Positions 6,230 to 61,773 of a stretch of 64,000 bases of DNA are shown here, one piece after another. The notes beneath the pieces are model-generated. The model saw only the letters and a program-made list of their open reading frames with translations. It searched no databases and was not told the origin of the DNA. Every line of letters begins with the position of its first letter. The first letter of the stretch is position 1. Position numbers and translations under genes: made by a program. This DNA is from Bdellovibrionales bacterium (GTDB lineage: Bacteria > Bdellovibrionota > Bdellovibrionia > Bdellovibrionales > UBA1609). The DNA lies in assembly GCA_028819305.1 (NCBI GenBank), contig JAPPLY010000057.1, positions 30,432 to 94,431 of the forward strand. The letters run 5' to 3'.

Positions 6230-6363
6230 ATACTTGGCAAGTTGAGTTCTTCGGGGGAAGTTTTTTATTATGATAATATACTCAATCCGGTTTGAATCCT
6301 CCAAGAGAAAAGAAACTTTGAAGGACGCAAATTCTATACCAGTTCGGATAGAATAAGGAACTT

Positions 6364-6570: not shown

Positions 6571-6779
6571 GCAAACTCCCCGTCCTTTCTGGCAAAGAAT
6601 GTGCTCAAATATTAAAAAGATATGGATTTGAGTTTCGCAGGCAGAAGGGAAGTCATATCATTTTACGGCATAGCTCTTCTAAAATACTTCTTACAGTACC
6701 TAATCATAAAGAACTTGATAGAGGAACATTAAGAGCTATTATCAGGCAGTCAGGGTTAGATATGAAAAAATTTTGTTGA
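6567..6779 (+). CDS. hicA: HicA mRNA-interferase toxin
   Basis: 70 aa. LKRYGFEFRRQKGSHIILRH...LTVPNHKELDRGTLRAIIRQSGL matches the HicA/YcfA signature (GSH...H.. .l..gtl..Il.q.gl). Confidence 0.85.
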   Translation: MSKLPVLSGKECAQILKRYGFEFRRQKGSHIILRHSSSKILLTVPNHKELDRGTLRAIIRQSGLDMKKFC

Positions 6780-6780
6780 T

Positions 6781-6874
6781 AAACCCTGTTCGTCTTTTAA
6801 AGGCTTAAAAAAAAAGGTCCCAAAGTTTTGGGAACTGGTGTGATGAGTTACACAAAAGAATAGAGTCCATATAA
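6781..6874 (+). pseudogene. Detached, frame-shifted copy of the last ~31 codons of nagZ
   Basis: This is the portion of DR2 corresponding to nagZ 5901-5993. It has an extra A in the homopolymer, no start codon and no upstream gene body. Confidence 0.7.
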
Positions 6875-6990
6875 TAAGAGTTTAAAACACGATGGGTCTA
6901 ATTTTAGAGATTAGGTTTTTTTTGTTATTATGAATTGATGGTATAATAAAGTTATTAGTGTTTTTTGTTTAAAAGGGATGGAAAAAAATA
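6781..6990 (+). repeat. Direct repeat DR2 (210 bp), second copy of the nagZ 3' end plus downstream sequence
   Basis: Starts immediately after the hicA stop (TGA 6777-6779). See DR1. Confidence 0.95.
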
Positions 6991-7076
6991 GACATATAGT
7001 TTTTTATTTTATCTAAACATGAGATATACCGATCAGGTTTGAAAATGCCGGATGTAAAGACGGGGTAGTTCGTAGC

Positions 7077-17201: not shown

Positions 17202-18239
17202 ATGAAGTTAGATAATTTTATTTCTCGAACTTTGACGGCGGTAGGGGCCTTTACCTTTTTCATTCTAGTTTGGTTTTTTTTTCCAGAAAAAGGAATGCCT
17301 TTGCTCGTCTTTGTCATTATGGGTGCTTTGGTTTGGGAATATGAACGATTGGTTTTTATGCCGAGTTGGTCAGGAAATAGCCGCCTTCCGAGTTTCTGTT
17401 CTCTTTTTGGAAAAAAGAGGACCCTGGAAAACCAAGGTTCTTTAGAAACAGGGAACTGTTCTCGTGAAAAAGAGGATCTATCCTCATCCCCCCCTTCCGC
17501 GAGTTTCGTTGGGAGTAAACCAACAGGGTACAATAAAGGCTTTTTTTTATTTTTTCTTTTATCTTCTTTATTTTTTTATTGTTTCTATTTTTTTAAAAAA
17601 CAAAATGTGCTGGAGTTATTTTTCATCTTCTTGTTTTTGTTTTTTGTTTTTGTTTTTTGGATTTTACATAAAAAAAAGAGGGAGCAGATTTTTCATGGAC
17701 TTTGTTTTAGTCTGGTAGGTTGGCTTTATATCGTTTTGCCTTCGGTTTTGTTTTTGGATATGTTTTTACATCAAAAAACGAACACCTGGATTTTATTTTT
17801 ATGTGTTGTATTTTTAGGAGATATTTTTGCTTACCTGGGAGGTCAGCTAAGGGGAAGTAAAAAATGGGCACCCGCTCTTTCTCCTGGAAAAACATGGTTT
17901 GGCTTATTTTGTGGTTTGCTGGCCAGTGGAATAGGTGCTGTGGTTTTAAGTTTTTATATAGATATATATGATGGACAACATGCTTCCCGCTTCGGGACAG
18001 AAATATTTGATTTCCCCTTTTCTTTTTTTCTTTTTATTTTTGGGGCTGTTTTGTTTTTTATTGCTCAAACAGGAGACCTATTCGTCTCTTTACTTAAAAG
18101 ACAAGCGGGTGTGAAAAACAGTGGTTGTTTATTACCGGGCCATGGAGGATTGTTAGACCGTTTAGATGGGCTTTTGTTGGCTTTACCTTTTGTGTATTTT
18201 ATAACTCAGTTGGATCCCTTTTTCATTAAAATCAATTGA
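17202..18239 (+). CDS. cdsA: Phosphatidate cytidylyltransferase (CDP-diglyceride synthase) carrying a 58-codon in-frame repeat insertion
   Basis: The C-terminal signature SLLKRQAGVKNSGCLLPGHGGLLDRLDGLL matches the CdsA S..KR..g.KD.g..iPGHGG.lDR.D motif. 345 aa, against the 285-aa E. coli CdsA as I recall it. Confidence 0.9.
   Translation: MKLDNFISRTLTAVGAFTFFILVWFFFPEKGMPLLVFVIMGALVWEYERLVFMPSWSGNSRLPSFCSLFGKKRTLENQGSLETGNCSREKEDLSSSPPSASFVGSKPTGYNKGFFLFFLLSSLFFYCFYFFKKQNVLELFFIFLFLFFVFVFWILHKKKREQIFHGLCFSLVGWLYIVLPSVLFLDMFLHQKTNTWILFLCVVFLGDIFAYLGGQLRGSKKWAPALSPGKTWFGLFCGLLASGIGAVVLSFYIDIYDGQHASRFGTEIFDFPFSFFLFIFGAVLFFIAQTGDLFVSLLKRQAGVKNSGCLLPGHGGLLDRLDGLLLALPFVYFITQLDPFFIKIN
17358..17531 (+). 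repeat. Family E repeat element inserted in frame in cdsA (174 nt)
   Basis: Starts atgccgagttggtcaggaaatagcc (compare caccgaaccggtcaggaaatcg at 57372). Ends gggagtaaaccaacagggtac (compare ggggatcaaaccagatcagtat at 40392). 174 = 58 x 3. Confidence 0.7.
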
Positions 18240-18477: not shown

Positions 18478-20154
18478 ATGTCTATATTATCTAATATGGT
18501 TTTCTCTATAGGGAGTTTAATGAGTGCTCTCCTTCCTTTTATTGTCTTGCTGGGAGTTTTAGTATTTATCCATGAGTTAGGCCACTTTATGGTGGCTAGG
18601 TGGTGTGGAGTTAGGGTAGAGGTTTTTAGCCTTGGCTTTGGTAAAAAACTTCTGAAGTGGAAGAAAAAGGACACTCTTTATTGTATAAGCTTATTTCCTT
18701 TGGGTGGATATGTGAAAATGTTTGGACATGAGTATGGAAAGGAAGTAGCCGAAAAAGATCGTCCGGTGGCTTTTCTTCATAAAAAGTTATGGCAGAGAGC
18801 CGCGATTGTTTTAGCTGGCCCTTTAATGAACTTTTTTTTAGCCATTCTTATTTTTGCCGGTTTGAGTGTCTTTGTGGGAGAAAGAAAAGGGCTTCCGGTT
18901 ATAGGTGAACTGGCCCCTTCTTCGGTCGCCGCTAAAGCCGGGCTGGCTTATGGTGATCTCATTTTATCTATTGGTGATGTTCCTGTAAAAAGTGTAAAAG
19001 AGGTGAGAGAAGTTATCTTTGAAAAACCAGATACTTTGTTGGATATAAAAGTGCGAAATCTTTCCCGGGAAGTGCAAACAAAAAAGGTGCTATCTCAAAC
19101 AGGACCGGCTACGGGAAAATGGGGCTTTTTAGAAAAAGGAGGTGTGATTGATGGGCTTAGCTTTTCCGCCTCTGCCGCGGTGGTGGGAGTCAGCAACCCA
19201 AATAGCCCCGCTGGTCAAGCGGGATTAAAAACTTTTGATAAAGTGATGTCGGTGAACGGAAAAAAAGTAAATACGCGAAAAGAGTTATTTCATCTTTTAA
19301 GCCTCTCTCCTTCTTCTGAATCCTCCTGGACGCTAGAAGTGCAAAGGGGGGAAGAGCTAAAAAAAATAATATTACCTCACTCTAAAAATGATCAAAAAGG
19401 AGATAAGGCCCAGCAGCTGGGTTTTGTTCGTTCTGATTTATTTATAGCCAATTTGAAGAAAAACGGGGTGGCGGAAAAAGCTGGCTTAAAAAAAGAAGAT
19501 TTCATTTTTAAATTGAACGGGGAGCAGGTTCCTTCTTGGTCTTTTTTAGTGGAAAAAATTAAAAACTTTAAAGAGCAGGACGGGACTTTGGAGATGGAAA
19601 TTAAAAGACAAGGGCAAGTAAAATCTTTTTCTTTAGTGCCGGAAATAAGAAAACAAATGATAAACGGGGTGGAAAAAAAATCCTACATGTTAGGTATCAT
19701 TGCTCAGTCCCCTCTTATTCCAGTTGGGGAGAGCTATGTTGAGAAGGAAAAAAATCCAGTAAAAGCTTTAAGCTTTGGAACAGGAAAAGTGCTTCATTGG
19801 TGTGCCTTTCTTTTTGTGTATATTAAAAAGCTGGTAGGGGGAGAGGTATCTACAAAAACTTTGGGAGGAGCTATTACTATAGGGCGGGCGGCTTATGATA
19901 GTTACTCTTATGGCTTAGAGTATTTTTTTAGACTTATGGCTATTTTGTCAGTGCAGTTGTTTTTATTTAATATCTTGCCTATTCCTGTCTTTGATGGAGG
20001 GCACTTGTTATTTTATGTGATCGAGTTTTTTAACGGAGCTCCGTTAAGTATAAAGAAAATGATAATAGCCCAACAAATGGGAGTATTGGCCGTCTTGTTT
20101 TTATTACTTTTTACCACTTTCAATGATCTGCATAATTGGTTATTTACCTGGTGA
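18478..20154 (+). CDS. rseP: RIP zinc metalloprotease RseP (site-2 protease) with PDZ domains
   Basis: HELGHFMVAR (HExxH), FNILPIPVFDGGHLLF (NxxPxxxxDG), PDZ-like segments. Confidence 0.9.
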   Translation: MSILSNMVFSIGSLMSALLPFIVLLGVLVFIHELGHFMVARWCGVRVEVFSLGFGKKLLKWKKKDTLYCISLFPLGGYVKMFGHEYGKEVAEKDRPVAFLHKKLWQRAAIVLAGPLMNFFLAILIFAGLSVFVGERKGLPVIGELAPSSVAAKAGLAYGDLILSIGDVPVKSVKEVREVIFEKPDTLLDIKVRNLSREVQTKKVLSQTGPATGKWGFLEKGGVIDGLSFSASAAVVGVSNPNSPAGQAGLKTFDKVMSVNGKKVNTRKELFHLLSLSPSSESSWTLEVQRGEELKKIILPHSKNDQKGDKAQQLGFVRSDLFIANLKKNGVAEKAGLKKEDFIFKLNGEQVPSWSFLVEKIKNFKEQDGTLEMEIKRQGQVKSFSLVPEIRKQMINGVEKKSYMLGIIAQSPLIPVGESYVEKEKNPVKALSFGTGKVLHWCAFLFVYIKKLVGGEVSTKTLGGAITIGRAAYDSYSYGLEYFFRLMAILSVQLFLFNILPIPVFDGGHLLFYVIEFFNGAPLSIKKMIIAQQMGVLAVLFLLLFTTFNDLHNWLFTW

Positions 20155-24792: not shown

Positions 24793-26103
24793 TTATAAAT
24801 CTTTAGAATCTAAAATCTCGGCGGAAAATATGTTTTGGATCTCCTGGATCAAATGATGTTCTTGAACCTGGGTTTCTTTCGACGGTGAAACTTCTTTTAA
24901 TATCTGTCCTTTTTTTTCCTCGATGGAGTGGTTTGTGACTTTCGGGGCTTCTTTTTTTGGTGGAGGTAGCTTGTTTGTTGTGGGAGGTATAACTCCAAAG
25001 AGGCTTTCTACATAAGGAGCTTGACTCATTTTTAAAAGGAGCATTTCTAAAAAGACTTTTGTGTCTTGAACGCGAGTGATATCCCAAGAGCCTTTTAAAG
25101 CCATGTCTAAAAGGAGATGGAGATCTTCGGGGGAGATATCTTGAACCCATTTTGAAAGTTTTAGTTTCTCCTTTTGAGACAAAGAGATCAAATGGTGTGT
25201 AGAGGGGGGGGGAGCTAATTTTAATAATAATAGATTTCTTAATTCTTTAATCAGGTTTTGTAAGAAAACGGAAGGGTCTCCTCCTTTTATATGAAGTTGG
25301 TCAAGCACTTTCAGTATTTGTTGGGGATTTTTTTCTAAAATCCCTTGGAGACTTTGGGTAAGAAGAGCCTCGTCTGTCAATCCTAACACTTCACTTACAT
25401 CTTTAGATGTAAAGTGATTATGGCAAAATGTCATCATTTGATCTAAAAGCCCCTGAGCGTCCCTTAAAGAACCCTGCGCCTCTCTTACCAAAATCCATAG
25501 GGCATTGTCTTCTGTCTGTGCTTTTTCTTTCTTACATATTTTTTTTAACTGCTCATAGATAAGGTGGTCAGCGATCTGATGAAATTGTAAAATCTGACAT
25601 CGCGAAAGTACCGTGGCAGGAATTTTTCTCATCTCTGTTGTAGCCATGATAAAAAGAGCATGAGGGGGAGGTTCTTCCAATGTTTTTAGCAACGCATTGA
25701 AAGCGCTCACAGATAACATGTGCACTTCATCAATGATATATATTTTATAAGGAGCGGCGGGAAGATAAATAATGGTTTCTTTTAGCTGTCTCACCGCTTC
25801 CACTCCATTATTGGAGGCTCCATCAATTTCCATAACATCTAAAGAGCAGCTGCTATCTATGTCTTGGCAAACTGTACAGTGATTGCAGGGAATAAAATTT
25901 TTTAAATTTAAACAATTTAAGCTTTTAGATAAAATACGTGCCGTGGAAGTTTTTCCTGTACCGCGCGGGCCTGAGAAAATAAGGGCAGGGTGCAGTCGTT
26001 TGTGTTTTAAACTATTTGTTAAAATGCGCACAACAGAACTTTGGCCAACAAGGTCTTCAAAAACAGCAGGTCTCCATTTTCTAGCTAGCACTTGATAAGA
26101 CAA
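24793..26103 (-). CDS. dnaX: DNA polymerase III subunit gamma/tau
   Basis: SYQVLARKWRPAVFEDLVGQ, Walker A GPRGTGKTS, Zn module CNHCTVCQDI, DEVHMLS. I prefer the TTG at 26103 (GGAGGTG SD 6 nt upstream, giving MSYQVLARKWRP as in E. coli). The ORF track extends to 26118. Confidence 0.9.
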   Translation of the reverse strand: MSYQVLARKWRPAVFEDLVGQSSVVRILTNSLKHKRLHPALIFSGPRGTGKTSTARILSKSLNCLNLKNFIPCNHCTVCQDIDSSCSLDVMEIDGASNNGVEAVRQLKETIIYLPAAPYKIYIIDEVHMLSVSAFNALLKTLEEPPPHALFIMATTEMRKIPATVLSRCQILQFHQIADHLIYEQLKKICKKEKAQTEDNALWILVREAQGSLRDAQGLLDQMMTFCHNHFTSKDVSEVLGLTDEALLTQSLQGILEKNPQQILKVLDQLHIKGGDPSVFLQNLIKELRNLLLLKLAPPPSTHHLISLSQKEKLKLSKWVQDISPEDLHLLLDMALKGSWDITRVQDTKVFLEMLLLKMSQAPYVESLFGVIPPTTNKLPPPKKEAPKVTNHSIEEKKGQILKEVSPSKETQVQEHHLIQEIQNIFSAEILDSKDL

Positions 26104-35638: not shown

Positions 35639-36601
35639 ATGGAAGAAATATCTTTTAAGCCTTTAAGTGAAGGTTTAGGTTTTTATGACCCTCCTTTACA
35701 GATTGGGGTTTCCGGTCCTTCTAAAAAAATAGCTGATTTACAGAAAAAGAATTTTTTATCCTCACCGGAATGGCCTGAATCTCTCCTATCTGGATCCTTG
35801 GACTTGGACAATTTACAAAATTATGAGCATCTTATATCTTTATTAGAAAAACCGTGGTTAGGAAAAAAGAGCTCGGGTTTTTTTTCAGGGAACAGATCTA
35901 TGATCCTGGAAAATAAGGAAGAAGAAAACCCAGCTTCTTCTCCTGTAACAAGAACCCCTGGTCTTTCTAAAAATCTTATAAAAAAAAACACTCAAGAGCC
36001 TTCTTCCGTATCACCGGTAAAAACCACTTTAGACCGCTCCGGTCAGGAATTTACGAACTCTGAACTTCGTTCATTTTTGGGAAAAAGCTTACGGAAACTA
36101 CAAAAGACAAGCCAGGTTAGTATATCCGCCTCGGACAAGAAGGATATTCTAAATAAAAATACTTTGACCGAACCGTCTTTAAATAAAAATCAGTTGGTTC
36201 CTAAAAAAACATTTTATTTTTCCTTAAAAGCTTACCTGGTGGATACCTTTATTATTTCTTTATTGTTTTTTCCGCCTTTTGCTTTATTTGTGTTTCTAAC
36301 TCAACCCGTTCCTATGGCTGTACTTCCATCGGTATGGCCTCAGATTCTGTTAACCTTTCTGTGTTTTTCTCAAATTTACTGTCTGTTATGTCGTTTGTTT
36401 TGTTTTGAAACCTATGGAGAGGCTCTTGCTAAGATAAGACTTTGCCATTTAGATTCTTCAAAAGAAGTGCATCCCTACAGATGGCTTTTGCGATTTTTTG
36501 TTTCTTGTGCCACTGGTTTTATTTTTCTCCCTTTGTTGTCTCTTATCTTTAGGAAAGATTTTACGGCTCGTCTAACGGGGCTTTATTTTCAAAAAATATA
36601 G
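35639..36601 (+). CDS. Membrane protein, possibly RDD family
   Basis: 320 aa. Soluble Ser/Lys-rich N-half. The C-half has TM helices and LKAYLVDTFIISLL ... ETYGEALAKIRL, reminiscent of RDD-domain proteins. Confidence 0.35.
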   Translation: MEEISFKPLSEGLGFYDPPLQIGVSGPSKKIADLQKKNFLSSPEWPESLLSGSLDLDNLQNYEHLISLLEKPWLGKKSSGFFSGNRSMILENKEEENPASSPVTRTPGLSKNLIKKNTQEPSSVSPVKTTLDRSGQEFTNSELRSFLGKSLRKLQKTSQVSISASDKKDILNKNTLTEPSLNKNQLVPKKTFYFSLKAYLVDTFIISLLFFPPFALFVFLTQPVPMAVLPSVWPQILLTFLCFSQIYCLLCRLFCFETYGEALAKIRLCHLDSSKEVHPYRWLLRFFVSCATGFIFLPLLSLIFRKDFTARLTGLYFQKI

Positions 36602-38557: not shown

Positions 38558-39622
38558 ATGGATCTTCTGTTAAATAGTTCAGTGAAGAATATCTGGTATG
38601 CTTTTTATGAATTAAGGGTGAAAAAAACGGGGCAGGTTCGTTGTGGAGCTTTGTTAAAAGTAGAGTTTAGGGATGGAAAGACGGGTCATGCTGATCTTCA
38701 TCCCTGGCCAGAGAAAGGGGAAGCTCCCTTAAAAGTTCAATTGGACAAATTAAGGAAAAAAGAATGTACGACCTTATGTTCAAGGGTCTTAGCTATTGCC
38801 AGAGAAGAGGCAAAGGCACGAACACAGGAGTTTAATTTACTGAGTTCTTTAAAAATTCCTTTAAGTCATTACCTTATTTCGGATGTAGAAAATTTCTGCG
38901 ATTTAGATAAAGTATTAAATCAGGGTTTTCGCATTTTTAAAGTAAAATTAAATACTCCTTTAAAAAGACAAACACAAAAACTTTTAAGATGGATGCAGAC
39001 TTTAGGTTCTTCTGTTAAATGGCGTTTGGATTTTTATATAAAATTAAACGAGCAACAATGGCGGCGGTGGAGCGAGGAATATTTAGTTAAAATGGATACT
39101 CAATATTTGGATTTTATGGAAGTGCCTTTTCAGTATCAAGAGCGTCTGTGGATGCAATACGAAGAATATCCTTTGGCTTTAGATGTATGGAATGGAAAAA
39201 ATACCTTGCCTGTATCTACTTTAGTGTGGAAAAATTCCAGAAAAAGCGAACCAGAGCTGCTTAGAAAAAAAAGGGCTGGGCTTTTTCAAAGAGTCATTTT
39301 TACTCATAGCCTTTCTCATCCCTTGGATCAACTTTCCAGCGCTTACTTTGCTGCTCGATTTTATAAAATCCATCCTCATTTAAGAGAAGTGTGTGGCTTG
39401 GTTCAAAAGGATGTGTATGAAAATCATAAGTTCACTTTACCCGATCGAGGGCCTTGCTTCCCTCGTCTTTCCGGAAAGGGTTGGGGCTTGGATTCTTTTT
39501 TATTGGATCGTCTTTCCTGGAAGAAATGTTGTTCTTATACTAAACCGATAGAGAAAAAAGAGGCGATAGGAAGAGACTGTAAAGTTACAAAAAAAATAAT
39601 ACCCGCAGGGTATAAAAGATGA
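38558..39622 (+). CDS. menC: o-Succinylbenzoate synthase (enolase superfamily)
   Basis: KxK motif FRIFKVKLN, metal-ligand-like WRLDFY / LDFMEVPF / LALDVW, position between menA and menE, ATGA overlap with menE. Confidence 0.65.
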   Translation: MDLLLNSSVKNIWYAFYELRVKKTGQVRCGALLKVEFRDGKTGHADLHPWPEKGEAPLKVQLDKLRKKECTTLCSRVLAIAREEAKARTQEFNLLSSLKIPLSHYLISDVENFCDLDKVLNQGFRIFKVKLNTPLKRQTQKLLRWMQTLGSSVKWRLDFYIKLNEQQWRRWSEEYLVKMDTQYLDFMEVPFQYQERLWMQYEEYPLALDVWNGKNTLPVSTLVWKNSRKSEPELLRKKRAGLFQRVIFTHSLSHPLDQLSSAYFAARFYKIHPHLREVCGLVQKDVYENHKFTLPDRGPCFPRLSGKGWGLDSFLLDRLSWKKCCSYTKPIEKKEAIGRDCKVTKKIIPAGYKR

Positions 39623-40965
39623 AAACAGCTTTCTATAAAATTAATCCTTCTCAAGTGGATTGGGAATCAGAAAATTCCTTGGTGTTTTTTAATGAGAAGC
39701 ACGCAAAAAAAGATATTTTTGTATCTTCTATACCCCAGCTTCCTTATTTAAAATCACATGTATGGCTAGCTACCTCCGGTAGGGTTTGTCAAAAATGGGT
39801 CGCTCTTTCCAAGGAAGCTTTACTCACTTCCGCTCAAGCGGTTAATCGGCATCTCCATGTTACGGAGAAGGATCGTTGGGGGCTTTGCCTTCCTTTGTTT
39901 CATGTAGGAGGTTTAGCTATTTTAGCTCGTGCTCACCTATCTCATAGCTCTTGCTTTTTATTTTCAGGAAAATGGTCCGCTTCTTCTTTTTTGGCCTTTT
40001 TAAATCAAAATAAGATCACTTTGAGTTCTCTCGTTCCTGCACAAGTGTATGATATAGTAAAAGCTCAACACGCTTGTCCTTCTTTTTTAAGGGCGGTTGT
40101 AGTGGGAGGAGAAAGTTTAAACCCCATCCTTTACCATGCCGCCCGAAAGCTAAATTGGCCCTTACTTCCTTCCTACGGTCTTACGGAATGTGCTTCTCAG
40201 GTGGCTACAGCCGAGTTAGACACTCTTATACCGCACCGGTCAGAAACCCCTGCCGTTCCCCGCGAAGCCAGATTTCGCGAAAGCAGAGGCGAGGACCAGC
40301 TTCACAGAGGCATGTTTTCGAACTCCGCTTCCTCCCTAGAAGGAGCTTCCCTTAGGAAGGAGTTTACAAAAACCACAAAACCAGCCCTCCTGGGGATCAA
40401 ACCAGATCAGTATGATAAAATGGAAATGCCTAAAATGAAAACCCTTTCTCATGTTCAAGTTAAGATTATTCAAAAAAAAGTGGCTATTCAGTCCGGGAGT
40501 CTTCTTAGTGGTTTTGTATCTCTTTTACCTTCGTCTTCTCGTTTAGAGTTTCAAAACCCGAGTCAGGACGGCTGGTACTTTACCGAAGATAAAGGCTCTT
40601 TAGAGGGGTCTTTTTTACAAATAGATAACACGGCTCAAATAAAAATATTAGGAGAGAAAATAAACCTAGAGGGTTTGGAAGACACACTAATGAATATTGT
40701 ATTAAAAAAAAAAGAAATAGCGGGGCAATACATTCTTCTCCCTATACCTAGTGAGAGAGAAGGATTTCAAATAGCTCTTATTTCAGATGTTTTTAACAGG
40801 CCGGTTTTAGCTGATCTTATTCAGGAATTTAATAAGAAAGTCTCTCCTTTTGAAAGAATTAGGAAGTTTTATCTCGTTCCTGAATTAACTTTTACTGATA
40901 TTTCCAAACTTTCAAAGCAAGCTTTACTTAAAAAAATGGCCTTCTCTTCAGAAAAGCGGGCTTAA
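39619..40965 (+). CDS. menE: o-Succinylbenzoate-CoA ligase carrying a 62-codon in-frame repeat insertion
   Basis: Adenylate-forming enzyme blocks: LATSGRVCQKW (degenerate TSGTTG.PK), SYGLTECASQV (YG.TE), GWYFTEDKG, KILGEKINLEGLE. Men operon context. Confidence 0.75.
   Translation: MKTAFYKINPSQVDWESENSLVFFNEKHAKKDIFVSSIPQLPYLKSHVWLATSGRVCQKWVALSKEALLTSAQAVNRHLHVTEKDRWGLCLPLFHVGGLAILARAHLSHSSCFLFSGKWSASSFLAFLNQNKITLSSLVPAQVYDIVKAQHACPSFLRAVVVGGESLNPILYHAARKLNWPLLPSYGLTECASQVATAELDTLIPHRSETPAVPREARFRESRGEDQLHRGMFSNSASSLEGASLRKEFTKTTKPALLGIKPDQYDKMEMPKMKTLSHVQVKIIQKKVAIQSGSLLSGFVSLLPSSSRLEFQNPSQDGWYFTEDKGSLEGSFLQIDNTAQIKILGEKINLEGLEDTLMNIVLKKKEIAGQYILLPIPSEREGFQIALISDVFNRPVLADLIQEFNKKVSPFERIRKFYLVPELTFTDISKLSKQALLKKMAFSSEKRA
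40228..40413 (+). repeat. Family E repeat element inserted in frame in menE (186 nt)
   Basis: ataccgcaccggtcagaaacccc ... accagcttcaca ... aaaccacaaaacc ... ggggatcaaaccagatcagtat. The termini and internal blocks match the intergenic copy 56582-56769 (atatcgaaccggtatagaaccccc ... accagcttcaca ... agggatcaaacaagatcagtat). 186 = 62 x 3. Confidence 0.8.
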
Positions 40966-41319: not shown

Positions 41320-41536
41320 GTCAATTGTGGTAGTTATATTGTTTTTTATAGTTTATGTCGGATTTAGTTTGATCTCTGTGGCGGGGGCGAAGATGTGATT
41401 TTTCGGTTGTTTCGTTCTTTTTTCCCAAAGGAAGAGAGAAGGTTCCCCGTGCTATGCCAGTTCGGTATAATTGATAATTGCAGATGAATAGAAAAGAAAA
41501 TGGGAACAAAGTAAGGTAGAAGAGGTTTAGAAAATC

Positions 41537-44151: not shown

Positions 44152-45153
44152 TTGATGTTTTTAAAAAGAATTATTGTTTTATTTGTTATTGTGGCTTTAG
44201 GGATGGGTGTTTTGTCTTTTTGGTGGCGATCGGTTCCTCAAAAGAAAGTATTGAGGGTAATGACCTATTCTTCTTTTGTGGCTGTCTTTGGCCCTGGTTC
44301 TCATATTAAAAAAGAATTTGAAAAAATATGTGATTGCCGTGTGAAGTGGATTAAAGTGCCGGATTCCACTCTGTTTGTTCAGCGTTTAAATTTAAGAGAA
44401 GATGGTTTTAAAACAGATGTGGTTTTAGGTTTGGATCAACTTTCTTTAAAAAAGGTAAAGATACTATCTTGGAAGAAGACAAAAGTAAAAAAAGATATAT
44501 TTACCTCTCCTGCTCGGGCATTTTTATCAGATGAATTTATTCCTTATAATTGGTCACCTATGAGTTTTCTTGCCAGGACAAAAAAGGGTGAAATGAATTT
44601 AAGCGATTTATTAGAAGGAAAATATAAAAATAATCTCTCTCTTCCGGCTCCTCGCACCAGTACGGTGGGGTTACAGTTTTACTATTGGGTATGGTGTGTT
44701 TTTAGAGAAAAAACAGAAGAGTTTTTGAAAAAAATTAAAGATAGGCTTTATGGCCTACCTCCATCCTGGTCCACCTCTTATGCTCTCTTTCAAAGAGGTC
44801 ATGTGAGTTTAAGTTTTTCTTATTTGAGTTCTTTACTTTACCACCAAGAGCAAAATCAGCAGGATTTTCATTTTGTTTTATTTAAGGAAGGACATCCTTT
44901 TCAAGTGGAACTCATGGCGGTCTCCGGTTTTTGCACTCAGTGTGAGTTAGCTCGTTCTTTTGTGCGTTTTTTGCTTACACCAAAAATACAAGTTTTACTC
45001 AAGCAAAAAAACTATATGTTACCGGTTATTCATTTAAACCAGAATGGTCCAGTTAAAGATATGCTTTCTAAAGTAAAACTCATTCAATACGATCCTGTTT
45101 TTTTAGATCATAAAGAAGAATGGCTGAATAAGTGGGACAGATGGATGAGATAG
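44152..45153 (+). CDS. thiB: Thiamine ABC transporter substrate-binding protein
   Basis: LRVMTYSSFVAVFGPGSHIKKEFEKICDCRVKWIKVPDSTLFVQRLNLREDGFKTDVVLGLDQ is collinear with my recollection of the E. coli TbpA N-terminus (LTVYTYDSF...GPG...KKAFE..C.C......EDG..LLNRL..EG...KADVVLGLD). Confidence 0.75.
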   Translation: MMFLKRIIVLFVIVALGMGVLSFWWRSVPQKKVLRVMTYSSFVAVFGPGSHIKKEFEKICDCRVKWIKVPDSTLFVQRLNLREDGFKTDVVLGLDQLSLKKVKILSWKKTKVKKDIFTSPARAFLSDEFIPYNWSPMSFLARTKKGEMNLSDLLEGKYKNNLSLPAPRTSTVGLQFYYWVWCVFREKTEEFLKKIKDRLYGLPPSWSTSYALFQRGHVSLSFSYLSSLLYHQEQNQQDFHFVLFKEGHPFQVELMAVSGFCTQCELARSFVRFLLTPKIQVLLKQKNYMLPVIHLNQNGPVKDMLSKVKLIQYDPVFLDHKEEWLNKWDRWMR

Positions 45154-45301
45154 TTGCTCTATTGTGTCCTCTGTTTTAATTAGACCATTTGGTTATCTGA
45201 TTTCCCTAGCTTATATAGGACTTTTCATACATGGTTGATTTTCCATTTAACATGATTCATTCTATCATAATCAATGAGTGGAATAAGGGAAATAAAAACC
45301 T

Positions 45302-46876
45302 ATGAAAGTAAATAGAACTCACTTTTTTTCTTTTTTTTTAATGGCTCTTGTACTTTTTCCGGTGTTTGTTTTTTTGTTTAAAGTTCCTCTGTTACAGTTT
45401 CCTGCTTCTTCTGAGTGGTTTGAAGTTTTTATTTCTACTTTGCTGCAAGCGGGATTGAGCGCTTTTTTTTCTGTTTTGCTTGGGATCTTTGGTGCTTTAG
45501 GACTTTGTGCTTTTTCAAATATACCGAATCGGTATCGAAAAAAGAGGAATCTTCAGAGGCCCTCACTGCCTTTGGGAGAAAACAAAAAGACGCCCGGAAA
45601 GAGCAAAACAGATTGGAATAGTATAAAAAAGAAAGGGTTGGAGCTTTTCTGTCTTCTACCTGCTCTACTCCCTCCTTTGATTCCAGTTTTAGCCTGGATT
45701 AATGTATTTGAGTTTTTTTATCATTTTCCTTTTTCTTTTTATTCTGTTTTGGCGATTCATATATGTATGAATGTGGGTTTTACTTCGGTTTTCTTTTTTC
45801 GTTTGTTTCAAAATCAAACAGGTTCCCTCCCAGCATGGGCTTTTTTACATGGTGTAAGCCGCTTATATTTTTTAAAAAAGATATTATTTTTTGAGTTCAG
45901 AAAAGATATTATACTTATTTTCTTATTAATATTTTCTTTTTGTTTTACTAGTTTTTCCGTCCCTCTGCTTATAGGGGGAGTGAGTGGTCAAACTATGGAA
46001 GTATTTATTGCGGAAAAACTTAAAGACCCTGCTACCTGGCCGGAAGCGATGGCTTTATTTACTATAGAAACGGTATTTATTTTTATCTTTTTTATCTTAC
46101 TTTATGGGAGGGAAGAAAAAGAGGTGAGAATTGTAAAACAGACAGAGCCATTATATTTATTGCCCTGTCTGCCGTTTTTGATTTTACCGGTATTGCCTTC
46201 TTTGTTAATTTTTTTGGGGTTGGGGGATGTGTTTTCTTCAGAAGCCGTCTGGCGGGATTTATTTACTATTAAGGAGAGTGTGGCTATGGCTGTCATACAA
46301 ACTTTGTTTGTTGGTATAGGCACAGGGCTTTTAGTGCTTTTTTTATTAGCCTTTGTGGCTTTTTGCCTACGGGATCTTTTTTTGCGTCATTTTCTTGTGG
46401 CCTATTCTGGAGCTTCCGTGGCTTTTATGGGTTTTGCTTTTTTACTCATAGGTTCGGATGGTCCTATAACAGTAGGGATGAAGTGGTCTGTCGGTTTGGC
46501 TTTGCTTTTTTTACCAACTTTATATCGTTTAATGGGAGAGTCTCTTCTACGACGATTAAAAAATCAAATCCAACTGGCTGATCTTATGGGAGCTAGTAGA
46601 GGTTTAAGTTTTATTAAAGTTATCTGGCCTCAATGTGCTGGTGTTTTCTTTTTTCTTTCCGGTATAGCGGCTTTTTGGGCTTGTGGGGATTTTGCATATT
46701 CTTCTATTGTGGCAGGTGAACAAACGCATTTGGCACTACTTATTCAAGATCTATTTTCCTCTTATCGTTTTGAACTGGCTACAGTGCTGACTTGGTTTTT
46801 GATTTTGAGTGGCACTTTTTGTTTTTCTTTGTTTGCAGGAGGAGCTTTTGTCTTATATAAAAAATCTTATTTGTAA
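45302..46876 (+). CDS. thiP: Thiamine ABC transporter permease (duplicated two-module type)
   Basis: 524 aa, ~12 TM, between thiB and thiQ. Contains a short family E insertion. Confidence 0.7.
45521..45625 (+). repeat. Short family E element inside thiP, reading through in frame
   Basis: ataccgaatcggtatcgaaaaaag (compare gataccgaaccggtatagaaaag at 26124) ... gagcaaaacagattggaatagtataaaa. Translates to [35 protein letters not shown] between two TM helices. Boundaries are accurate to about 3 nt. Confidence 0.55.
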
Positions 46877-47495
46877 TCAAGGTGATTTCAAACTGGATAT
46901 TCCCTTTATGGAATGGCCGGATAAAGGAGTGAGTGTTTTAACAGGACCTTCCGGTTCGGGAAAAAGCACTTTGGCCCTGGCTTTATGTGGATTAAAAAAA
47001 GTGGAAAAAGGCTTTCAGTGGATTTTTAAAGATCAGGATATGGTTCTTCTTTCTCCTCCGGACAGGAATATTTCGTTGATGTTTCAAAGTTTAGAGCTTT
47101 TTCCTCATTTGAGTGCAGAACAAAATATTTTATTTCCCGCTCAAGCTCGAAAAATAGATAAGCAAGAAACACAAAAACGAATGTGTGTTTTACAGGAACA
47201 TTTGAAGCTTTTTTCTTTTTTAAAAAAGCCAGTGTTTATGCTCTCCGGTGGGGAAAAACAAAGGGTGGCTTTAGCCAGAGCTTTAATAGTAAAGCCTCGG
47301 TTTTTGATTTTAGATGAACCTTTTTCCTCCTTAGATGGGCAGTTACGAAAACAGGCAGCTACTTTAATTAAAAACATTTTGGAATGGGAAAAATGTCCTA
47401 CCCTTCTCATTTCCCATAGTGAAGAGGAGATAAAAACTTTAGCTCAAAAGATTTTTTATATTCATACAGGGAAGTTGCAATTGGCTGGAGTATAA
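46848..47495 (+). CDS. thiQ: Thiamine ABC transporter ATPase
   Basis: Walker [10 protein letters not shown], signature [15 protein letters not shown], Walker [13 protein letters not shown]. Short, with no C-terminal regulatory domain. I prefer the TTG at 46848, preceded by AGGAGG. The ORF track starts at 46809. Confidence 0.75.
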
Positions 47496-50249: not shown

Positions 50250-52217
50250 TTAATAATTAGTAATGAGGACTTCTTTTAGCTTCTTTTTCTTATTATTATA
50301 ATAGTTGATATAATTGCTCTCTATTTTATGAACACTGTATTTTTTCATCCACTTAATTAATGAGCTATTTTTGTGTCCGTTATAATGAGTGACATTTGAA
50401 AAAGCAAACCTAACATTTTTTTTGTTTAAATCATCTATTAAAGATAGTAGATCAACCTCTAGTTTGTCATTCCAAAGTTTATTGTATTCACTACCTGTTA
50501 TTAAATAAGGGGGATCTAGATAAATAAAGTCATCTTTTAGATAATTTTTTTTGTTTAAAAATTTTTTAAAATTTTTTGTTGTGAGCTTTATATTTTTACC
50601 TTGAACAAAAGAAAAGTAATCGTTAAGAGCCTTAACGACATTTTTGTTAAAATCCACATTACCTACAGGTAAATTAAATTTCCCCCCGCCATTGAATCTA
50701 AGCATTCTGTTAAAGCCATATATAAGTAAAACATAAAGAATCAAAGGATCATTTTCTTTATGTTTATTAGCTTGTTTACGTAATTTTTCATAACCAACTT
50801 TATTAAATTGAGCATAGTAGGTTTTTTTAAAAGATTTTTTTAAAGAATCCGGAACAATATCTTTTTTATAGGAGTGGGAAAGATTATATTTGTGTATAAT
50901 CTTTTCAATATTCTTAAAAAAGTTCTTTTGATGGGAAGCACTGTTTATTAAGAATTTATGTATATTTATTAGATTTTTATCTATGTCGTTTAAAAAATAT
51001 TTTTTAGCTTGAATATTTAAAAAAACAGTTCCTCCTCCTACGAAAGGTTCATAAAAATGATTTATTTGTTTAGGAAATAAATCATTTAACTGATTCATTA
51101 ATTTATATTTATCTCCCACATAAAATAGAGGAGATCTTTTTATTTTTCTTTTATTTTCTACTTTGGTTATAAATAAATACTCTTTGTGATTATTAAAATG
51201 GGTGTTTCCGGCATTAAAGTAGCGATAGTCTTTTTCAAAAGTTTTGGTCTTTCCTCTTTGATTTAATATATCTGTTATTTCTTCTAATGAAATTTTATTT
51301 TGGGATGAACTGCTTTTAGAAAGATAAGTATTGTTATAAGACACCACCAGATGTTTTGTTTTTATATTCTTAATTAATTCAGAAAACCGGTCTTTAGCAC
51401 TTTCTTTACAATAGTCGCTCATGTTTTCTCTCTTTGGTTTTAAAGCCACTCCATATAGCTTGGGATGATCCCATTTTGTGAGAGTTTCCAAAATATGATA
51501 AAACCGGCTGTACTGTCTGGAATTATAAGGAGGATCAATATAAACAATATCGGCTTTAATTTTTTTAACTAAGGTATTTGTGTCTTCTCTAAAAATAGAA
51601 AGAGATTTTATGTCAATAGGTTGAATTAAGCTCATATAAAAATTGTCTCTGATAAAATTTTTTTTAAAGTAAGCGTCGTAGTGTCCGACTGTGTTGGCAA
51701 TTTTGTCTGTAGAATAAAGAAGGGAAGCTATTAAAATGTGGTATTCCTTCTCTGTAAAATCTTTTTTATTATCTTCGATGTGTTGTCTGATAAATCCAAT
51801 GATTTTTGCAGAATCTTTAGAGAAATATTTTTTTCCAAAGTTTTTGGAAAAATAATTGCCGGTTAAATTTTTAACATTGATATTATTATAGTGATTTATA
51901 ACAGAGTTTAGGTTGTTTTGATTCCAATGTCCTTTTTTAAAAAAAGCCTTATAAATAATATAATTGGAATAAAGAAAGTCATTTAAAATAATTTTATTAA
52001 AATATTTACTGGCTGTAGCTCCCACAATACCTGTGCCGGCAAAAATGTCGGCAAAGGAATCCCCTGAGCATTCTCTATTAAGGGTAGAAAAAATCCAATT
52101 TGCTAATCTATATTTATTACCAATGTATCTGCGGTTTTGTAGTTGAAAAAATGGATTTGGTGGAAAGGAAAAAAAATCATTAGACTTTTGATTAAAAAAG
52201 CTTTTTTGTATTTCCAT
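50250..52217 (-). CDS. Tandem double-domain N6-adenine DNA methyltransferase (two D12/Dam-class modules, M.FokI-like architecture)
   Basis: Module 1: RRYIGNKYRL, FADIFAGTGIVG, IVYIDPPYNSRQYSRFYHILE. Module 2: PLFYVGDKYKLMNQL, FYEPFVGGGTVF, FIYLDPPYLITGSEYN, C-terminal EVLITNY. Each module has an F.G.G SAM loop and a DPPY motif. Confidence 0.85.
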   Translation of the reverse strand: MEIQKSFFNQKSNDFFSFPPNPFFQLQNRRYIGNKYRLANWIFSTLNRECSGDSFADIFAGTGIVGATASKYFNKIILNDFLYSNYIIYKAFFKKGHWNQNNLNSVINHYNNINVKNLTGNYFSKNFGKKYFSKDSAKIIGFIRQHIEDNKKDFTEKEYHILIASLLYSTDKIANTVGHYDAYFKKNFIRDNFYMSLIQPIDIKSLSIFREDTNTLVKKIKADIVYIDPPYNSRQYSRFYHILETLTKWDHPKLYGVALKPKRENMSDYCKESAKDRFSELIKNIKTKHLVVSYNNTYLSKSSSSQNKISLEEITDILNQRGKTKTFEKDYRYFNAGNTHFNNHKEYLFITKVENKRKIKRSPLFYVGDKYKLMNQLNDLFPKQINHFYEPFVGGGTVFLNIQAKKYFLNDIDKNLINIHKFLINSASHQKNFFKNIEKIIHKYNLSHSYKKDIVPDSLKKSFKKTYYAQFNKVGYEKLRKQANKHKENDPLILYVLLIYGFNRMLRFNGGGKFNLPVGNVDFNKNVVKALNDYFSFVQGKNIKLTTKNFKKFLNKKNYLKDDFIYLDPPYLITGSEYNKLWNDKLEVDLLSLIDDLNKKNVRFAFSNVTHYNGHKNSSLIKWMKKYSVHKIESNYINYYNNKKKKLKEVLITNY

Positions 52218-52422: not shown

Positions 52423-53511
52423 TTAAAATTTTCCCAATTTAATAGAAAGAATTTTTTTAATCAAACTAGAAGGGTTTTTCTTTTGTAGGTTTTTAATGGG
52501 TACCCATGAGACCTTTGGCAAAGATGAGGAAGGTGCTTTTTTAGATACTAGAACATAAATAACATGATGAGTGATGGAATGTATAAAGTCATATCGTTTG
52601 GGGGGGACTTTCTTTCTAATAGCTTTTCCAGGAAAGAGGGGGTAGTTTTTTAGTACCGGTAAAGAGTGATGATGAGTTAAGGCTATTTTATTTTTTTTTA
52701 TATCCATCCGATTTGGATTTTTTAGGGGTGTCTTTTTTTCTTCCAAGGGCAAGCGGAGTTTGGAGGGTGTAAATTTCTGACTGGTTCGGTCTATTAACAC
52801 GAGGGGTTGCCAGAACCATATTTCTTTTTCCTTTTTTTCTTTTTTCAAGGGGATAAAATGTACTTGATTATGTTTAAGAGCTTTGCAGTTTTTTTTAAGA
52901 GGGCAGGCTGTGCATAGCGGTTTCCCGACTGTGCAAACAAGGGCTCCTAACTCCATTAAGGCTTGATTTAAAATGGAAGAAGGGTATTTTACCATCCACT
53001 GATCCACCTCCTTTTGTAAAATCTCTCTGCCTTGTTTGTTCCACCAGGGTTTTTTAAAATTAAGATAACGGGTGAGGACCCGAATGACATTGGCATCCAG
53101 CACTCCTGTTTTTTCATTAAAAGCTAAAGCGCTCACAGCTCTGGCGGTGTAGGGACCAAACCCGGGTAGTTTTAATAATTCTTGATGAGTTCGGGGGAAA
53201 GATTTTTTCTTACTAATGATTTGTGCGGACTTATGGAGATTTTTTACTCGGGAATAGTAACCCAGGCCAGCCCAGTAAGGGATAACTTCTTCCAGGGGAG
53301 TTTTAGCTAAAGATTCCAAAGTTTTAAATTTTTTAATAAATTTTTTGTAGTAGGGGATCACCGTGTTTACAGTCGTTTGTTGCAACATTACTTCCGATAC
53401 CCAGATAGGGTAAGGGTTTTTCTTTTTTTTTCTCCAAGGGAGAGGTCTTTTGTTTTGCCTATACCATTTAATAAGTTGATTTTGACTGGTTTGATGTGGA
53501 TTGTCTGACAT
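52423..53511 (-). CDS. mutY: A/G-specific adenine glycosylase MutY
   Basis: LIKWYRQNKRPLPWR, YPIWVSEVMLQQTTV, LPGFGPYTARAV, 4Fe-4S CTVGKPLCTACPLKKNC, C-terminal MutT-like domain. Confidence 0.9.
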   Translation of the reverse strand: MSDNPHQTSQNQLIKWYRQNKRPLPWRKKKKNPYPIWVSEVMLQQTTVNTVIPYYKKFIKKFKTLESLAKTPLEEVIPYWAGLGYYSRVKNLHKSAQIISKKKSFPRTHQELLKLPGFGPYTARAVSALAFNEKTGVLDANVIRVLTRYLNFKKPWWNKQGREILQKEVDQWMVKYPSSILNQALMELGALVCTVGKPLCTACPLKKNCKALKHNQVHFIPLKKEKKEKEIWFWQPLVLIDRTSQKFTPSKLRLPLEEKKTPLKNPNRMDIKKNKIALTHHHSLPVLKNYPLFPGKAIRKKVPPKRYDFIHSITHHVIYVLVSKKAPSSSLPKVSWVPIKNLQKKNPSSLIKKILSIKLGKF

Positions 53512-56570: not shown

Positions 56571-56581
56571 ATTTTTAAATT

Positions 56582-56769
56582 ATATCGAACCGGTATAGAA
56601 CCCCCGCTCCCGCGAGAACCAGCTTCACAAGGACCGGGTTTTCTCATTCCTACTTCTCCCCCAGAAGAGAATCACTACCTGATTCATATAAAAAATCGGA
56701 CAACATATTCTTGCCCTCCACTTGTGCGGGGGCAGGGTGCATGGGTAGTAGGGATCAAACAAGATCAGT
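56582..56769 (+). repeat. Family E repeat element (reference intergenic copy, between alaS start and recX end)
   Basis: atatcgaaccggtatagaacccccgctcccgcgagaaccagcttcaca ... gtgcgggggcagggtgc ... agggatcaaacaagatcagtat. It explains ORF-track entry 56481..56831. Confidence 0.8.
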
Positions 56770-56871
56770 ATAGAGCAATTACTGCTTTGTTATCAAGTTT
56801 TTATTTTTTACTTGTATGGCTATTTTTTTAGGATGTCCTTTGTTTATAGAAAAGATTGCTTTCCTTATTTT

Positions 56872-57318
56872 TTATCTATGGATGTCATATATGACCTTTT
56901 TTATTATAGATTGTTCAAAACCTCTATAGGAAAGAAAGCGGTGCATTTTTTGTATTATATTCTGTGGGGGATTTTGTATATGTTTGAATTTTTTTTCCAT
57001 CCACCATCGGCATTTTTTTTCTTCTAAAGCTTCTTGTCTTTGTGTGGAAGGCAGGTGCTTTCTCTTTAATGCTGCTTGAATCAAAAGCCAACCTCTGTTT
57101 TTTCTGTGTAACTCATTAATAAGTTGCTCAGCTATTTCTTCGGGTTCAGGAAGCCATTTTTGTTTCTTTGCCAGACAGAGGGCTTTCATTACATCTTGTT
57201 TGTTAAAATGCTTTTTAAGTTTACACTCTAGCTCGTACTCGGAATGTGTTCGATAACAGATGTAAGTTTGTAGCTTTTCTATAATGTTTTTTTCAGAAAG
57301 TTTCTTCTTATTGTTCAT
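56872..57318 (-). CDS. recX: RecA regulator RecX (probable)
   Basis: 148 aa, helical-repeat composition. CYRTHSEYELECKLKK fits the RecX N-terminal pattern (R..S..EL..KL). It sits directly upstream of alaS, as in the widespread recA-recX-alaS arrangement. Confidence 0.55.
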   Translation of the reverse strand: MNNKKKLSEKNIIEKLQTYICYRTHSEYELECKLKKHFNKQDVMKALCLAKKQKWLPEPEEIAEQLINELHRKNRGWLLIQAALKRKHLPSTQRQEALEEKKCRWWMEKKFKHIQNPPQNIIQKMHRFLSYRGFEQSIIKKVIYDIHR

Positions 57319-57371
57319 TAGAAATGAAAATTAATATTTATAGGAAACAAAATCCAGTTTTATTTTGTGTT

Positions 57372-57700
57372 TCACCGAACCGGTCAGGAAATCGTATCTC
57401 TCAGAGGGTCTCTTTGGAAGATAAAAAAAGAGACCCTCGAAAAACTCTGTCTCCGCGAAGGTTGTTTCCACAAAATGACTCCTCGTGAAAACGGGGGAGT
57501 GGGGCTAGATTCCTGTTTCTACAGAATTGACAAGCTAGAGAAGTTTGTCCTTATGAGAACAGGGAGCGCGGGGACCTTTTTCCTCACGGACAGGGGGGAT
57601 CAAGGAGGACCGAAAATTTTAGGATATACAGAAAAAGACCTGTCCCTTGAAGGGGGGTAAGGGGGTAAGGGGGTAAGGGGGGATCAAATCAGATGAGTAT
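57372..57700 (+). repeat. Family E repeat element, long variant (329 nt) with a G-run microsatellite
   Basis: tcaccgaaccggtcaggaaatcg start. 10-bp perfect hairpin gagggtctct...agagaccctc. ccacaaaatgac block. Ends ggggggatcaaatcagatgagtat. It explains ORF-track entry 57367..57660. Confidence 0.8.
57652..57682 (+). repeat. (GGGGGTAA)n microsatellite / canonical G-quadruplex motif
   Basis: ggggggtaagggggtaagggggtaagggggg: four G5-6 runs separated by TAA loops. Confidence 0.9.
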
Positions 57701-61282: not shown

Positions 61283-61582
61283 AATGATTACTCCTTTTTA
61301 GGAAAGATTTTATGTTTATACCGGACAGATCAAGAATCCCCTTTTCCACAGGGACCTCTGTTTACGCCCTCCGTTTACTCTTGGGAGAAAAAAGAGGCTA
61401 TCGAAAAATGCAAACTAGACTGGTATATATACTCTAAAGTAAAACTTTTTTAAAGTAGGGAATCCCTTGAGTTCTTGTTGTCATTATTAATTTATTCTTA
61501 AATTTTTAACCTGTGCTTGTTTTTAGAGATATTATCTGTTATGTGTGGTCCTTTAAACTGAGTAGAGAAAAGAATTAAATTT

Positions 61583-61743
61583 ATACTGATCTTATTTGAT
61601 TCCCGCGACCCTGCTCCCGCAAAAGCAGGGGGCGAGGACCTTATCCCCGCTTCCGCGGGGATAAGGTTTTGTGCTTTCTGTAAGCTTCTTCCGAGGAGGT
61701 GAGCGGAGTTTGAAATTCGCAATTTCTATATCGGGTCAGTATC
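61583..61743 (-). repeat. Family E repeat element (termini in reverse orientation, mosaic interior)
   Basis: The left end atactgatcttatttgattccc is the reverse complement of gggaatcaaataagatcagtat. Hairpins ccctgctcccgcaaaagcaggg and cttatccccgcttccgcggggataag. Right end ctatatcgggtcagtat. Confidence 0.7.
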
Positions 61744-61773
61744 ATCTCATAAACATAGAAGGTGGTGAAATCT

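Follow-up and report, generated by a model that had tools for sequence, protein, structure and literature searches.

The segment described here lies inside a predicted thiP gene in a window of 64,000 nt, the whole stretch of DNA that was analysed. The thiP ORF (45302-46876, +) specifies 524 aa and is uninterrupted through the segment, as the first-pass annotation had stated; in this ORF the region reads ...TTTTCAAA TATACCGAATCGGTATCGAAAAAAGAGG...GAGCAAAACAGATTGGAATA GTATAAAAAAG.... The match of the ThiP product to Pfam BPD_transp_1 was weak. Assignment to the ThiP/FbpB type is based on two tandem type-I importer membrane domains and on substrate-binding and ATPase gene neighbours. Upstream, 44152-45153 scores above cutoff for TIGR01254, the thiamine ABC substrate-binding subfamily, and downstream, 46809-47495 encodes an ABC ATPase. 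Features of the locus, together with related repeats found elsewhere in the window, are collected in Table 1.

Table 1. Features of the thiP locus and copies of the repeat family in the 64-kb window (CM, covariance model).
Feature	Position	Strand	Basis or remarks
Host gene, thiP	45302..46876	+	fused two-domain ABC importer permease, ThiP/FbpB type, thiamine/iron-type
Net insertion in thiP	45522..45620	+	99 nt = 33 codons relative to all orthologues
Left TA of putative target-site duplication	45520..45521	+	empty versus filled site
Right TA of putative target-site duplication	45619..45620	+	empty versus filled site
5'-terminal palindrome of thiP copy, ATACCGAATCGGTAT	45521..45535	+	ATACCG-AAT-CGGTAT, 6-bp stem, 3-nt loop
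3' terminus of thiP copy, ...CAAAACAGATTGGAATA	45604..45620	+	variant of family end CAAAC(M)AGATCAGTATA / CCGGATTGAGTATA
GTATAAAA ("gtataaaa")	45621..45628	+	host sequence, outside the element
Short copy in cdsA ORF, past the first two membrane helices	17354..17449	+	CM 58.9 bits; Pfam CTP_transf_1; MPSW...
Short copy, in frame in RDD-family membrane protein gene	36027..36127	+	CM 73.5 bits
Long copy, in frame in menE	40228..40416	+	net 186 nt, 62 codons; IPHR...
Short copy, in frame in HhH-GPD (MutY-like) gene	52696..52796	-	CM 86.3 bits; +31 aa
Truncated copy, 5' part alone, directly upstream of dnaX start	26124..26159	+	CM 21.7 bits, positions 6-44
Intergenic short copy	6274..6354	-	CM 56.1 bits
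Intergenic short copy	41388..41472	-	CM 57.4 bits
Intergenic long copy, GC-rich internal module	56580..56775	+	sequence comparison within window
Intergenic copy	57368..57700	+	CM on 5' part, 57368-57455; 3' terminus GGGATCAAATCAGATGAGTATA ends near 57700
Partial copy adjoining the 61582..61746 copy	61360-61430	+	sequence comparison and CM
Intergenic long copy	61582..61746	-	sequence comparison and CM

The extent of the insertion was established from protein and DNA alignments with loci L001-L009, L020 and L023-L025 and with 72 homologous proteins, the latter retrieved from a collection of 5.8 billion protein clusters. The closest match among GTDB representative genomes, where all best matches were Bdellovibrionales MAGs, was CBDETO010000005 (the sister genome), whose ThiP is 80% identical; no relative above ~80% identity was found in the 5.8-billion-cluster collection. 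The 33-residue segment was absent from 9/9 orthologous loci aligned and from 72/72 further homologous proteins covering the site, the 80%-identical orthologue included. The first-pass annotation had proposed an inserted element and looked to ThiP orthologues for a decision, and their alignment bears it out in that the stretch is not conserved. The proposed extent, 45521-45625 or ~105 nt, was too long; the net insertion is 99 nt. A variant of the family's 3' terminus does close the segment, as had been suggested, but the trailing GTATAAAA that had been included with it is host sequence, since L020 (GTGTAAAA) and L024 (GTATATAAAA) have it at their empty sites.

Comparison of empty and filled sites was used to place the junctions. 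In the closest relative the empty thiP site reads TTTTCTAATA/GTGTAAAAA, as compared to TTTTCAAATA[TACCG...GATTGGAATA]GTATAAAAA in the window. Aligned on the TA, the empty site of L001/L020 is TCTAA-TA-GTGTA and the filled site of the window is CAAA-TA-[TACCG...TTGGAA]-TA-GTATA; divided at the element boundary, the same sites are TCTAATA/GTGTAAAA without the element and CAAATA[TACCG...GGAATA]GTATAAAA with it. The empty site has a single AATA, a tetranucleotide that includes the TA, and the filled site has one at each junction, so that placement of the insertion may slide left by up to 4 nt. The target-site duplication in thiP would thus be TA, ATA or AATA (2-4 nt).

Given the metagenomic origin of the window and the many copies of the family, an assembler could in principle have produced such a pattern by collapsing a repeat or mis-joining it into thiP. 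However, an independent Logan contig (sponge-metagenome run X1, ~17x) matches 45200-46000 with 0 differences, and the reading frame is preserved. Mis-joining is also unlikely because the thiP copy, at 44-71% identity to the other copies, is too diverged from them. The probability of an assembly artefact is therefore considered negligible. The best explanation for the filled and empty sites is that the thiP copy arrived after the lineage of the window had split from its closest sequenced relative; a precise, footprint-free loss in the sister lineage would be less parsimonious than a gain. Neither the window type nor the sister type of the empty thiP site had a match in JGI metagenome contigs, where the lineage is not represented.

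Profile models were built to assess membership of the thiP segment in the repeat family. An Infernal covariance model made from 11 other copies, with thiP excluded, matched 45517-45623 at 50.9 bits (E ~2e-10) over positions 1-101 of 101, and the thiP segment was the top match of this model outside the training set. An nhmmer profile of six short copies, again with thiP excluded, matched 45519-45620 (E=1.6e-6), and the same profile exposed six more copies in the window. Scanning with a model built from clear copies had been proposed in the first-pass annotation, and membership in the family is upheld by both models. The pattern ATACCGNNNCGGTAT with at most one mismatch was found three times in the window (26125, 45521 and 56582) as compared to 0.01 expected from shuffles. 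The start of the segment had been described as nearly identical to a terminus upstream of dnaX, and 19 of 21 positions do match there (26125-26145). The nearest kin of the thiP copy is L013:1814-1920 in the sister genome, with 71% identity over 107 columns; the two have a pair of small subtype-specific insertions in common in the model-guided alignment. Mean identity of the thiP copy to the family is 0.53, and the family mean is 0.54. These matches place 45520-45620 in a dispersed repeat family, as a short and diverged member.

The same data bear on whether the 33 residues could be a ThiP loop, either ancestral or evolved independently by expansion or slippage, that resembles the repeat by chance or composition. 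The loop between the second and third membrane helices (TM2-TM3) is variable in length, and distant homologues carry unrelated extra segments there (P0021-P0024, P0027, P0029 and P0031), which indicates that this ThiP loop tolerates length changes and lends this reading some plausibility. Against it stand the full-length covariance-model match, the subtype indels common to the thiP copy and L013, the lack of the segment in the 80%-identical orthologue as well as in all other homologues, and boundaries that fall exactly at the family termini. An evolved loop is effectively refuted by the model match, the absence from homologues and the coincidence of boundaries.

At least 13 copies of the family are present in the window. 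Five of these lie in frame inside genes, all five in the sense orientation. The thiP copy had been counted as a third coding insertion within 64 kb; it is coding, but the count was too low, as it is at least the fifth (cdsA, RDD-family, menE, thiP and HhH-GPD). In-frame insertion was verified by comparison to insert-free orthologues in the case of menE, thiP, HhH-GPD and the RDD-family gene, and the cdsA copy is probably an in-frame coding insertion as well. Coding sequence makes up at least 83% of the window and 5/13 copies are genic, so the copies are strongly enriched between genes, which is expected if selection purges most genic insertions. The truncated copy adjoins ORF 24793-26118 (-), whose identity as dnaX was confirmed. 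Two reading frames of the element are used: IP[NH]R... (thiP and menE) and MPSW... (cdsA), versus [IL]DR[TS][SG]Q... (RDD-family and MutY-like). The shared frame of thiP and menE had been reported previously and holds, with ATA CCG in codon register in both and offsets from the ORF start that are multiples of three (45521-45302 = 219; 40228-39619 = 609). Peptides from different copies are poorly conserved.

The ends of the family are TATACCGAACCGGTATAGAA ... GATCAGTATA, and the consensus can be written as TA/TACCGAACCGGTATAGAA ... (C/T-rich)TTGGAAGAAAAAAAGA...CAAACCGGAT(c)AGTA/TA, with boundaries TA/TACCGAACCGGTATAGAA ... GATCAGTA/TA. Its inverted ends are short and imperfect: the 5' TATACCGAAC and the reverse-complemented 3' TATACTGATC agree at 8/10 positions, and the corresponding ends of the thiP copy are TATACCGAATC and TAT-TCCAATC. 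Copies fall into a short class (~75-107 nt) and a long class (~165-330 nt), and the thiP copy measures 97-101 nt. The 5' end is a 17-bp palindrome, the most conserved stretch of the family, and it is intact in thiP. In an RNAalifold analysis of 11 copies, predicted pairs were limited to this 5' hairpin (5-7 bp), which was also present in single-strand folds. The overall fold of the elements was mostly unremarkable, with single-strand z values from -0.4 to -3.5 and a value of -1.2 for the thiP copy. An Rfam scan of the window and three sister-genome loci returned one tRNA and no other family at threshold, and blastn of a well-conserved copy against PLSDB gave no plasmid match; the family thus has no counterpart in either collection.

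Conservation of the palindrome, which is perfect in thiP, raises the question of whether the element has been co-opted: the palindrome might be bound by a protein or linked to methylation, or the basic peptide might act as a functional loop. Alternatively, the element might be removed from the RNA or protein. Older coding copies are kept in both species at an identity similar to that of their host genes, which would agree with a function. However, no structure is conserved past the 5-pair hairpin, and the peptides of different copies are read in two frames and poorly conserved. Inteins possess splicing blocks and have sizes above ~130 aa. Removal as a self-splicing intron or an intein was rejected, as no Rfam family, introns included, matches anywhere in the window and the insert, at 33 aa, falls far below intein size. 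Co-option or removal is accordingly regarded as very improbable.

The consequences of the insertion for ThiP were examined by structure prediction and by comparison to the CBDETO orthologue. An AlphaFold2 model built with 63 homologues had a pLDDT of 91.8 and a pTM of 0.90, and its top structural match was the FbpB permease 9j4r_A (TM 0.68-0.72). Confidence was low solely at residues ~71-105 (pLDDT 56-69), which link the second membrane helix (38-72) to the third (105-122). In the model the insert is a floppy loop on a confidently predicted fold. The TM2-TM3 loop is basic in its native form (SNSVKKKG), and the insert contributes 10 K/R versus 2 D/E; the net charge of the 33 added residues is ~ +8. 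Because both the native loop and the inserted peptide are basic, the positive-inside rule would put the insert loop on the cytoplasmic face. Measured against its CBDETO orthologue, thiP has a dN/dS ratio of 0.18 over the whole gene, with 0.25 before the insert and 0.16 after it. These values indicate that thiP is under purifying selection, and the gene has no signs of a pseudogene. The insert would be translated by read-through as 33 extra residues, and the permease that contains it probably still works. The window sequence was found in one DNA run, a sponge metagenome, and in 0 RNA runs.

The history of the family was assessed by comparison to relatives. The sister genome also carries the family, with short copies of 80-107 nt; 21.5 kb of syntenic sister DNA contained four covariance-model matches and two mini copies. 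The 19-mer ATAYCGAACCGGTATAGAA occurs eight times in the sister genome and elsewhere only twice in 596 Gb, which is consistent with chance. Across genome and metagenome collections, the only three matches outside the sister genome, in Shewanella, Flavobacterium and one metagenome contig, were rejected as chance, as they match the 19-mer alone (17-19 bits). In three more distant relatives, whose ThiP is 70-73% identical, synteny is kept; 64 kb of their syntenic DNA gave 0 model matches, and all four inserts compared (RDD-family, menE, thiP and MutY-like) are absent. Presence in both species and absence from the three distant relatives indicate that the expansion of the family took place in the ancestor shared by the two.

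Individual sites differ between the two species. The RDD-family and MutY-like copies occupy the same sites in the sister genome, at an identity similar to that of the surrounding genes; the sister orthologue of the MutY-like copy is L020:16001-16101, and L023-L025 have no copy there. In the case of menE, the sister (L020) has a mini copy with a net length of 45 nt, or 15 codons, an in-frame difference of 141 nt from the window. The thiP site is empty in the sister genome. In addition, recX has been deleted in the sister genome between two same-orientation copies, and 22 nt of fused termini remain. With a mean identity of 54%, the family is old and diverged, so recent mobility is seen only in presence or absence between the two species. 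The thiP difference indicates that the family was still mobile after the two species split, when the thiP copy came in.

Taken together, the most probable reading, to which we assign a probability of roughly 0.78, is that a MITE-like, TA-targeting, lineage-specific non-autonomous element has inserted in frame in thiP and is tolerated there. Such an element would be mobilised in trans and would insert at TA. In thiP it would have duplicated the TA, with element plus TA amounting to 99 nt; the frame stays open and gains 33 residues because that frame has no stop codon across the 99 nt. The added residues would extend the short basic TM2-TM3 loop, which is predicted to be cytoplasmic, and the insertion is likely tolerated because this loop is length-variable in the protein family. 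Genic copies that survive would be those whose length, with the duplication added, is divisible by three, that carry no stops in the host frame and that fall in a permissive loop. Other insertions would be purged, or kept between genes.

The menE sites also fit a TA target, with empty sites TCTTTAAAYA in three relatives versus a filled site TCTTA[TACCG...CAGTA]TAATAAA in L020. One sister-genome insertion, L020:16848-16944, has no TA...TA flanks, and its flanks are too diverged to decide. With two usable empty-site pairs and this one insertion lacking TA flanks, TA duplication is inferred rather than demonstrated. IS630 and Tc1-mariner transposons duplicate TA on insertion, and the target suggests, by analogy, a transposase of that type. 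Among the window ORFs examined and near copies in the compared loci, no transposase or full-length parent insertion sequence with the family ends was found. Non-syntenic or copy-adjacent ORFs of the window that were considered as a transposase were identified instead as D12 methyltransferase, recX, hicAB and deaminase genes and the like.

These observations leave some room for a selfish repeat of the Rickettsia palindromic element (RPE) kind that spreads with no dedicated transposase, through recombination, gene conversion or another mechanism, its TA flanks being simply conserved ends. The lack of a transposase among the ORFs scanned would agree with such spread, as would the loss of recX between same-orientation copies in the sister (with its 22 nt of fused termini), the internal 141-nt difference between the menE copies of the two species and the one insertion without TA flanks. 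However, the thiP junction is sharp and lies at the family termini, with a direct repeat of 2-4 nt that is single at the empty site, and the empty site has no homologous sequence. Sharp junctions at family termini and the direct repeat favour transposition over homologous exchange, and transposase-free spread is considered unlikely.

Insertion of a MITE-like element in thiP may be one instance of a broader process. It is possible, though doubtful, that the family constitutes an RPE-like system denser than that of Rickettsia, with copies in loops of essential genes (cdsA, menE, mutY-like and thiP) at ~1 per 13 kb that persist through speciation, are resized in threes and drive the loss of recX. 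It would then be a major ongoing source of protein loops and genome reduction in a second, unrelated host-associated group. Rickettsia is the best-known case of tiny mobile repeats colonising housekeeping genes in frame, and scattered examples exist in Coxiella, Neisseria and cyanobacteria. Such behaviour at high density in a sponge-associated lineage that is unrelated to these, uncultured and small in genome lends support to the notion that such elements thrive under relaxed selection in host-restricted bacteria. The record of two species provides dated examples across the life of a copy, from lineage-specific insertion (thiP) through retention (mutY-like and RDD-family) and in-frame resizing (menE) to the element-mediated loss of a gene (recX). 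There is also a practical aspect: to gene callers and homology tools, proteins of this kind appear oddly long or to contain 'unknown' segments, and a family model permits masking. The interest of the locus is moderate and lies mainly in the density of coding copies and in the clear two-species record. This is a new repeat family in a new lineage; the phenomenon itself has precedents in Rickettsia and Coxiella.

A literature search found no such elements described in Bdellovibrio-related bacteria, and the family was compared to systems known from elsewhere. TA duplication as in IS630/Tc1-mariner elements would fit the junctions in thiP and menE, a link drawn from the target site alone; no DDE transposase of this or another family was found in the sequence examined. 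REP/BIME sequences are 20-40 nt palindromes tagged with GTAG or CGTC and linked to RAYT transposases (PMC3733652). They were rejected as a match, as the element here is ~100 nt, its palindrome ATACCGNNNCGGTAT has no GTAG/CGTC tag and no RAYT was seen.

In its small size with no transposase ORF, its many dispersed copies and its terminal inverted repeats, the family agrees with the definition of a MITE. It resembles the Correia/NEMIS elements of Neisseria, the RUP of pneumococcus and QMITE1/2 of Coxiella (PMC5896051, PMC3184786), which are likewise small and dispersed, contain no transposase ORF, have terminal inverted repeats with TA ends, occur in short and long classes and form some in-frame ORF fusions. 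The encoded peptides are basic, as in the case of Coxiella QMITE1. Unlike those MITEs, however, the inverted repeats of this family are short (~10 nt) and imperfect, and there is no stable overall stem-loop. Its terminus sequences are not known to be related to Correia. A strict RPE or Correia-type hairpin of the whole element was rejected, as only the 5' mini-hairpin is conserved (RNAalifold; thiP z = -1.2).

The genome of R. conorii is ~1.27 Mb in size. Its Rickettsia palindromic elements belong to a set known as RPE-1 to RPE-10 (Ogata et al. 2000, as summarised in PMC10969869), and 44 coding copies are reported per R. conorii genome (PMC10969869). As in Rickettsia, the repeats described here are ~100-150 nt long and occupy a small, AT-rich, host-associated genome; they have repeatedly entered unrelated housekeeping genes in frame, adding surface or loop peptides and leaving the gene intact; and old copies are kept across species, with no transposase known. 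The two differ in that the family has defined inverted ends and probable TA duplications, and in that its host is a sponge-associated member of the Bdellovibrionales, in another phylum; the likeness is one of behaviour, and a relationship in sequence is not expected. Coding copies of the family occur at ~1 per 13 kb (five in 64 kb), as compared to the 44 per genome of R. conorii.

Besides the copy in thiP, four more copies of the repeat family were found in frame within genes of the window, and two different reading frames of the element are used among these four. The copies in the RDD-family and MutY-like genes are conserved, being held also at the orthologous sites of the sister genome (CBDETO010000005, the closest relative).

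Features of the window discussed in this section
Feature	Position (nt)	Strand	Remarks
Family copy	6274-6354		beside hicB-hicA
hicB-hicA toxin-antitoxin pair	6364-6779		Pfam HicB_lk_antitox + HicA_toxin
Family copy in cdsA	17354-17449		sense, in frame
Family copy in RDD-family gene	36027-36127		sense, in frame
Family copy in menE	40228-40416		sense, in frame
GC-rich module or run	40240-40300
D12-class N6-adenine DNA methyltransferase gene	50250-52217	minus	654 aa
Family copy in HhH-GPD/MutY-like gene	52696-52796	minus	sense, in frame
GC-rich module or run	56600-56740
recX	56872-57318	minus	flanked by two family copies
GC-rich module or run	57651-57681
GC-rich module or run	61620-61670	minus

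At the menE site, the sister genome (L020, its syntenic locus, ~5205-5250) carries only a mini copy with both termini nearly fused, giving a net insertion of 45 nt as compared to 186 nt in the window. The reading frame was kept through this internal length change of 141 nt. Two of the more distant relatives, L024 (aa ~290-345) and L025, have low-complexity insertions of their own at a different site in menE, such as ...CAGMTSLAGMTSVAGRAGEAEVKEE..., which are unrelated to the family.

The two copies flanking recX are in the same orientation (region 56580-57700). The sister genome lacks this entire 1.1 kb, having in its place 22 nt of fused termini, TATATCAGACCTGACGGGTATA (L020 ~19990-20012), and recX is absent at that site. 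All three more distant relatives retain recX, adjoining alaS. The absence of recX from the sister-genome site looks like an element-mediated deletion.

The hicB-hicA pair and the family copy beside it are enclosed by 221-nt direct repeats (5915-6135 and 6796-7016; 93% identical), and a terminus-like fragment, ATATACCGATCAGG, lies past the second repeat at about 7024. The sister genome holds a ParE-like toxin pair, and no D12-class methyltransferase gene, at the site syntenic to that of the window's methyltransferase. Two GATC sites are present in the long-form 3' termini of the family.

Long-form copies also contain GC-rich hairpin modules, e.g. CCCCGCGGAAGCGGGG, in a window otherwise of 37% GC, as well as a (GGGGGTAA)n run; the modules and the run may represent another small repeat, nested in these copies. 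The window has two occurrences (6108-6120 and 39600-39612; 0.03 expected) of a second short palindrome type, TACCCGNAGGGTA, which is located at the ends of genes and looks similar to a terminator hairpin.

Unrelated extra segments occupy the same TM2-TM3 loop, between membrane helices 2 and 3, in ThiP homologues of other lineages (P0021-P0024, P0027, P0029 and P0031), and the ThiP of one orthologous locus, L005, has a 33-aa insert in another loop (~aa 270-300). Other repeat families may have given rise, by insertion, to these segments and to the L005 insert.
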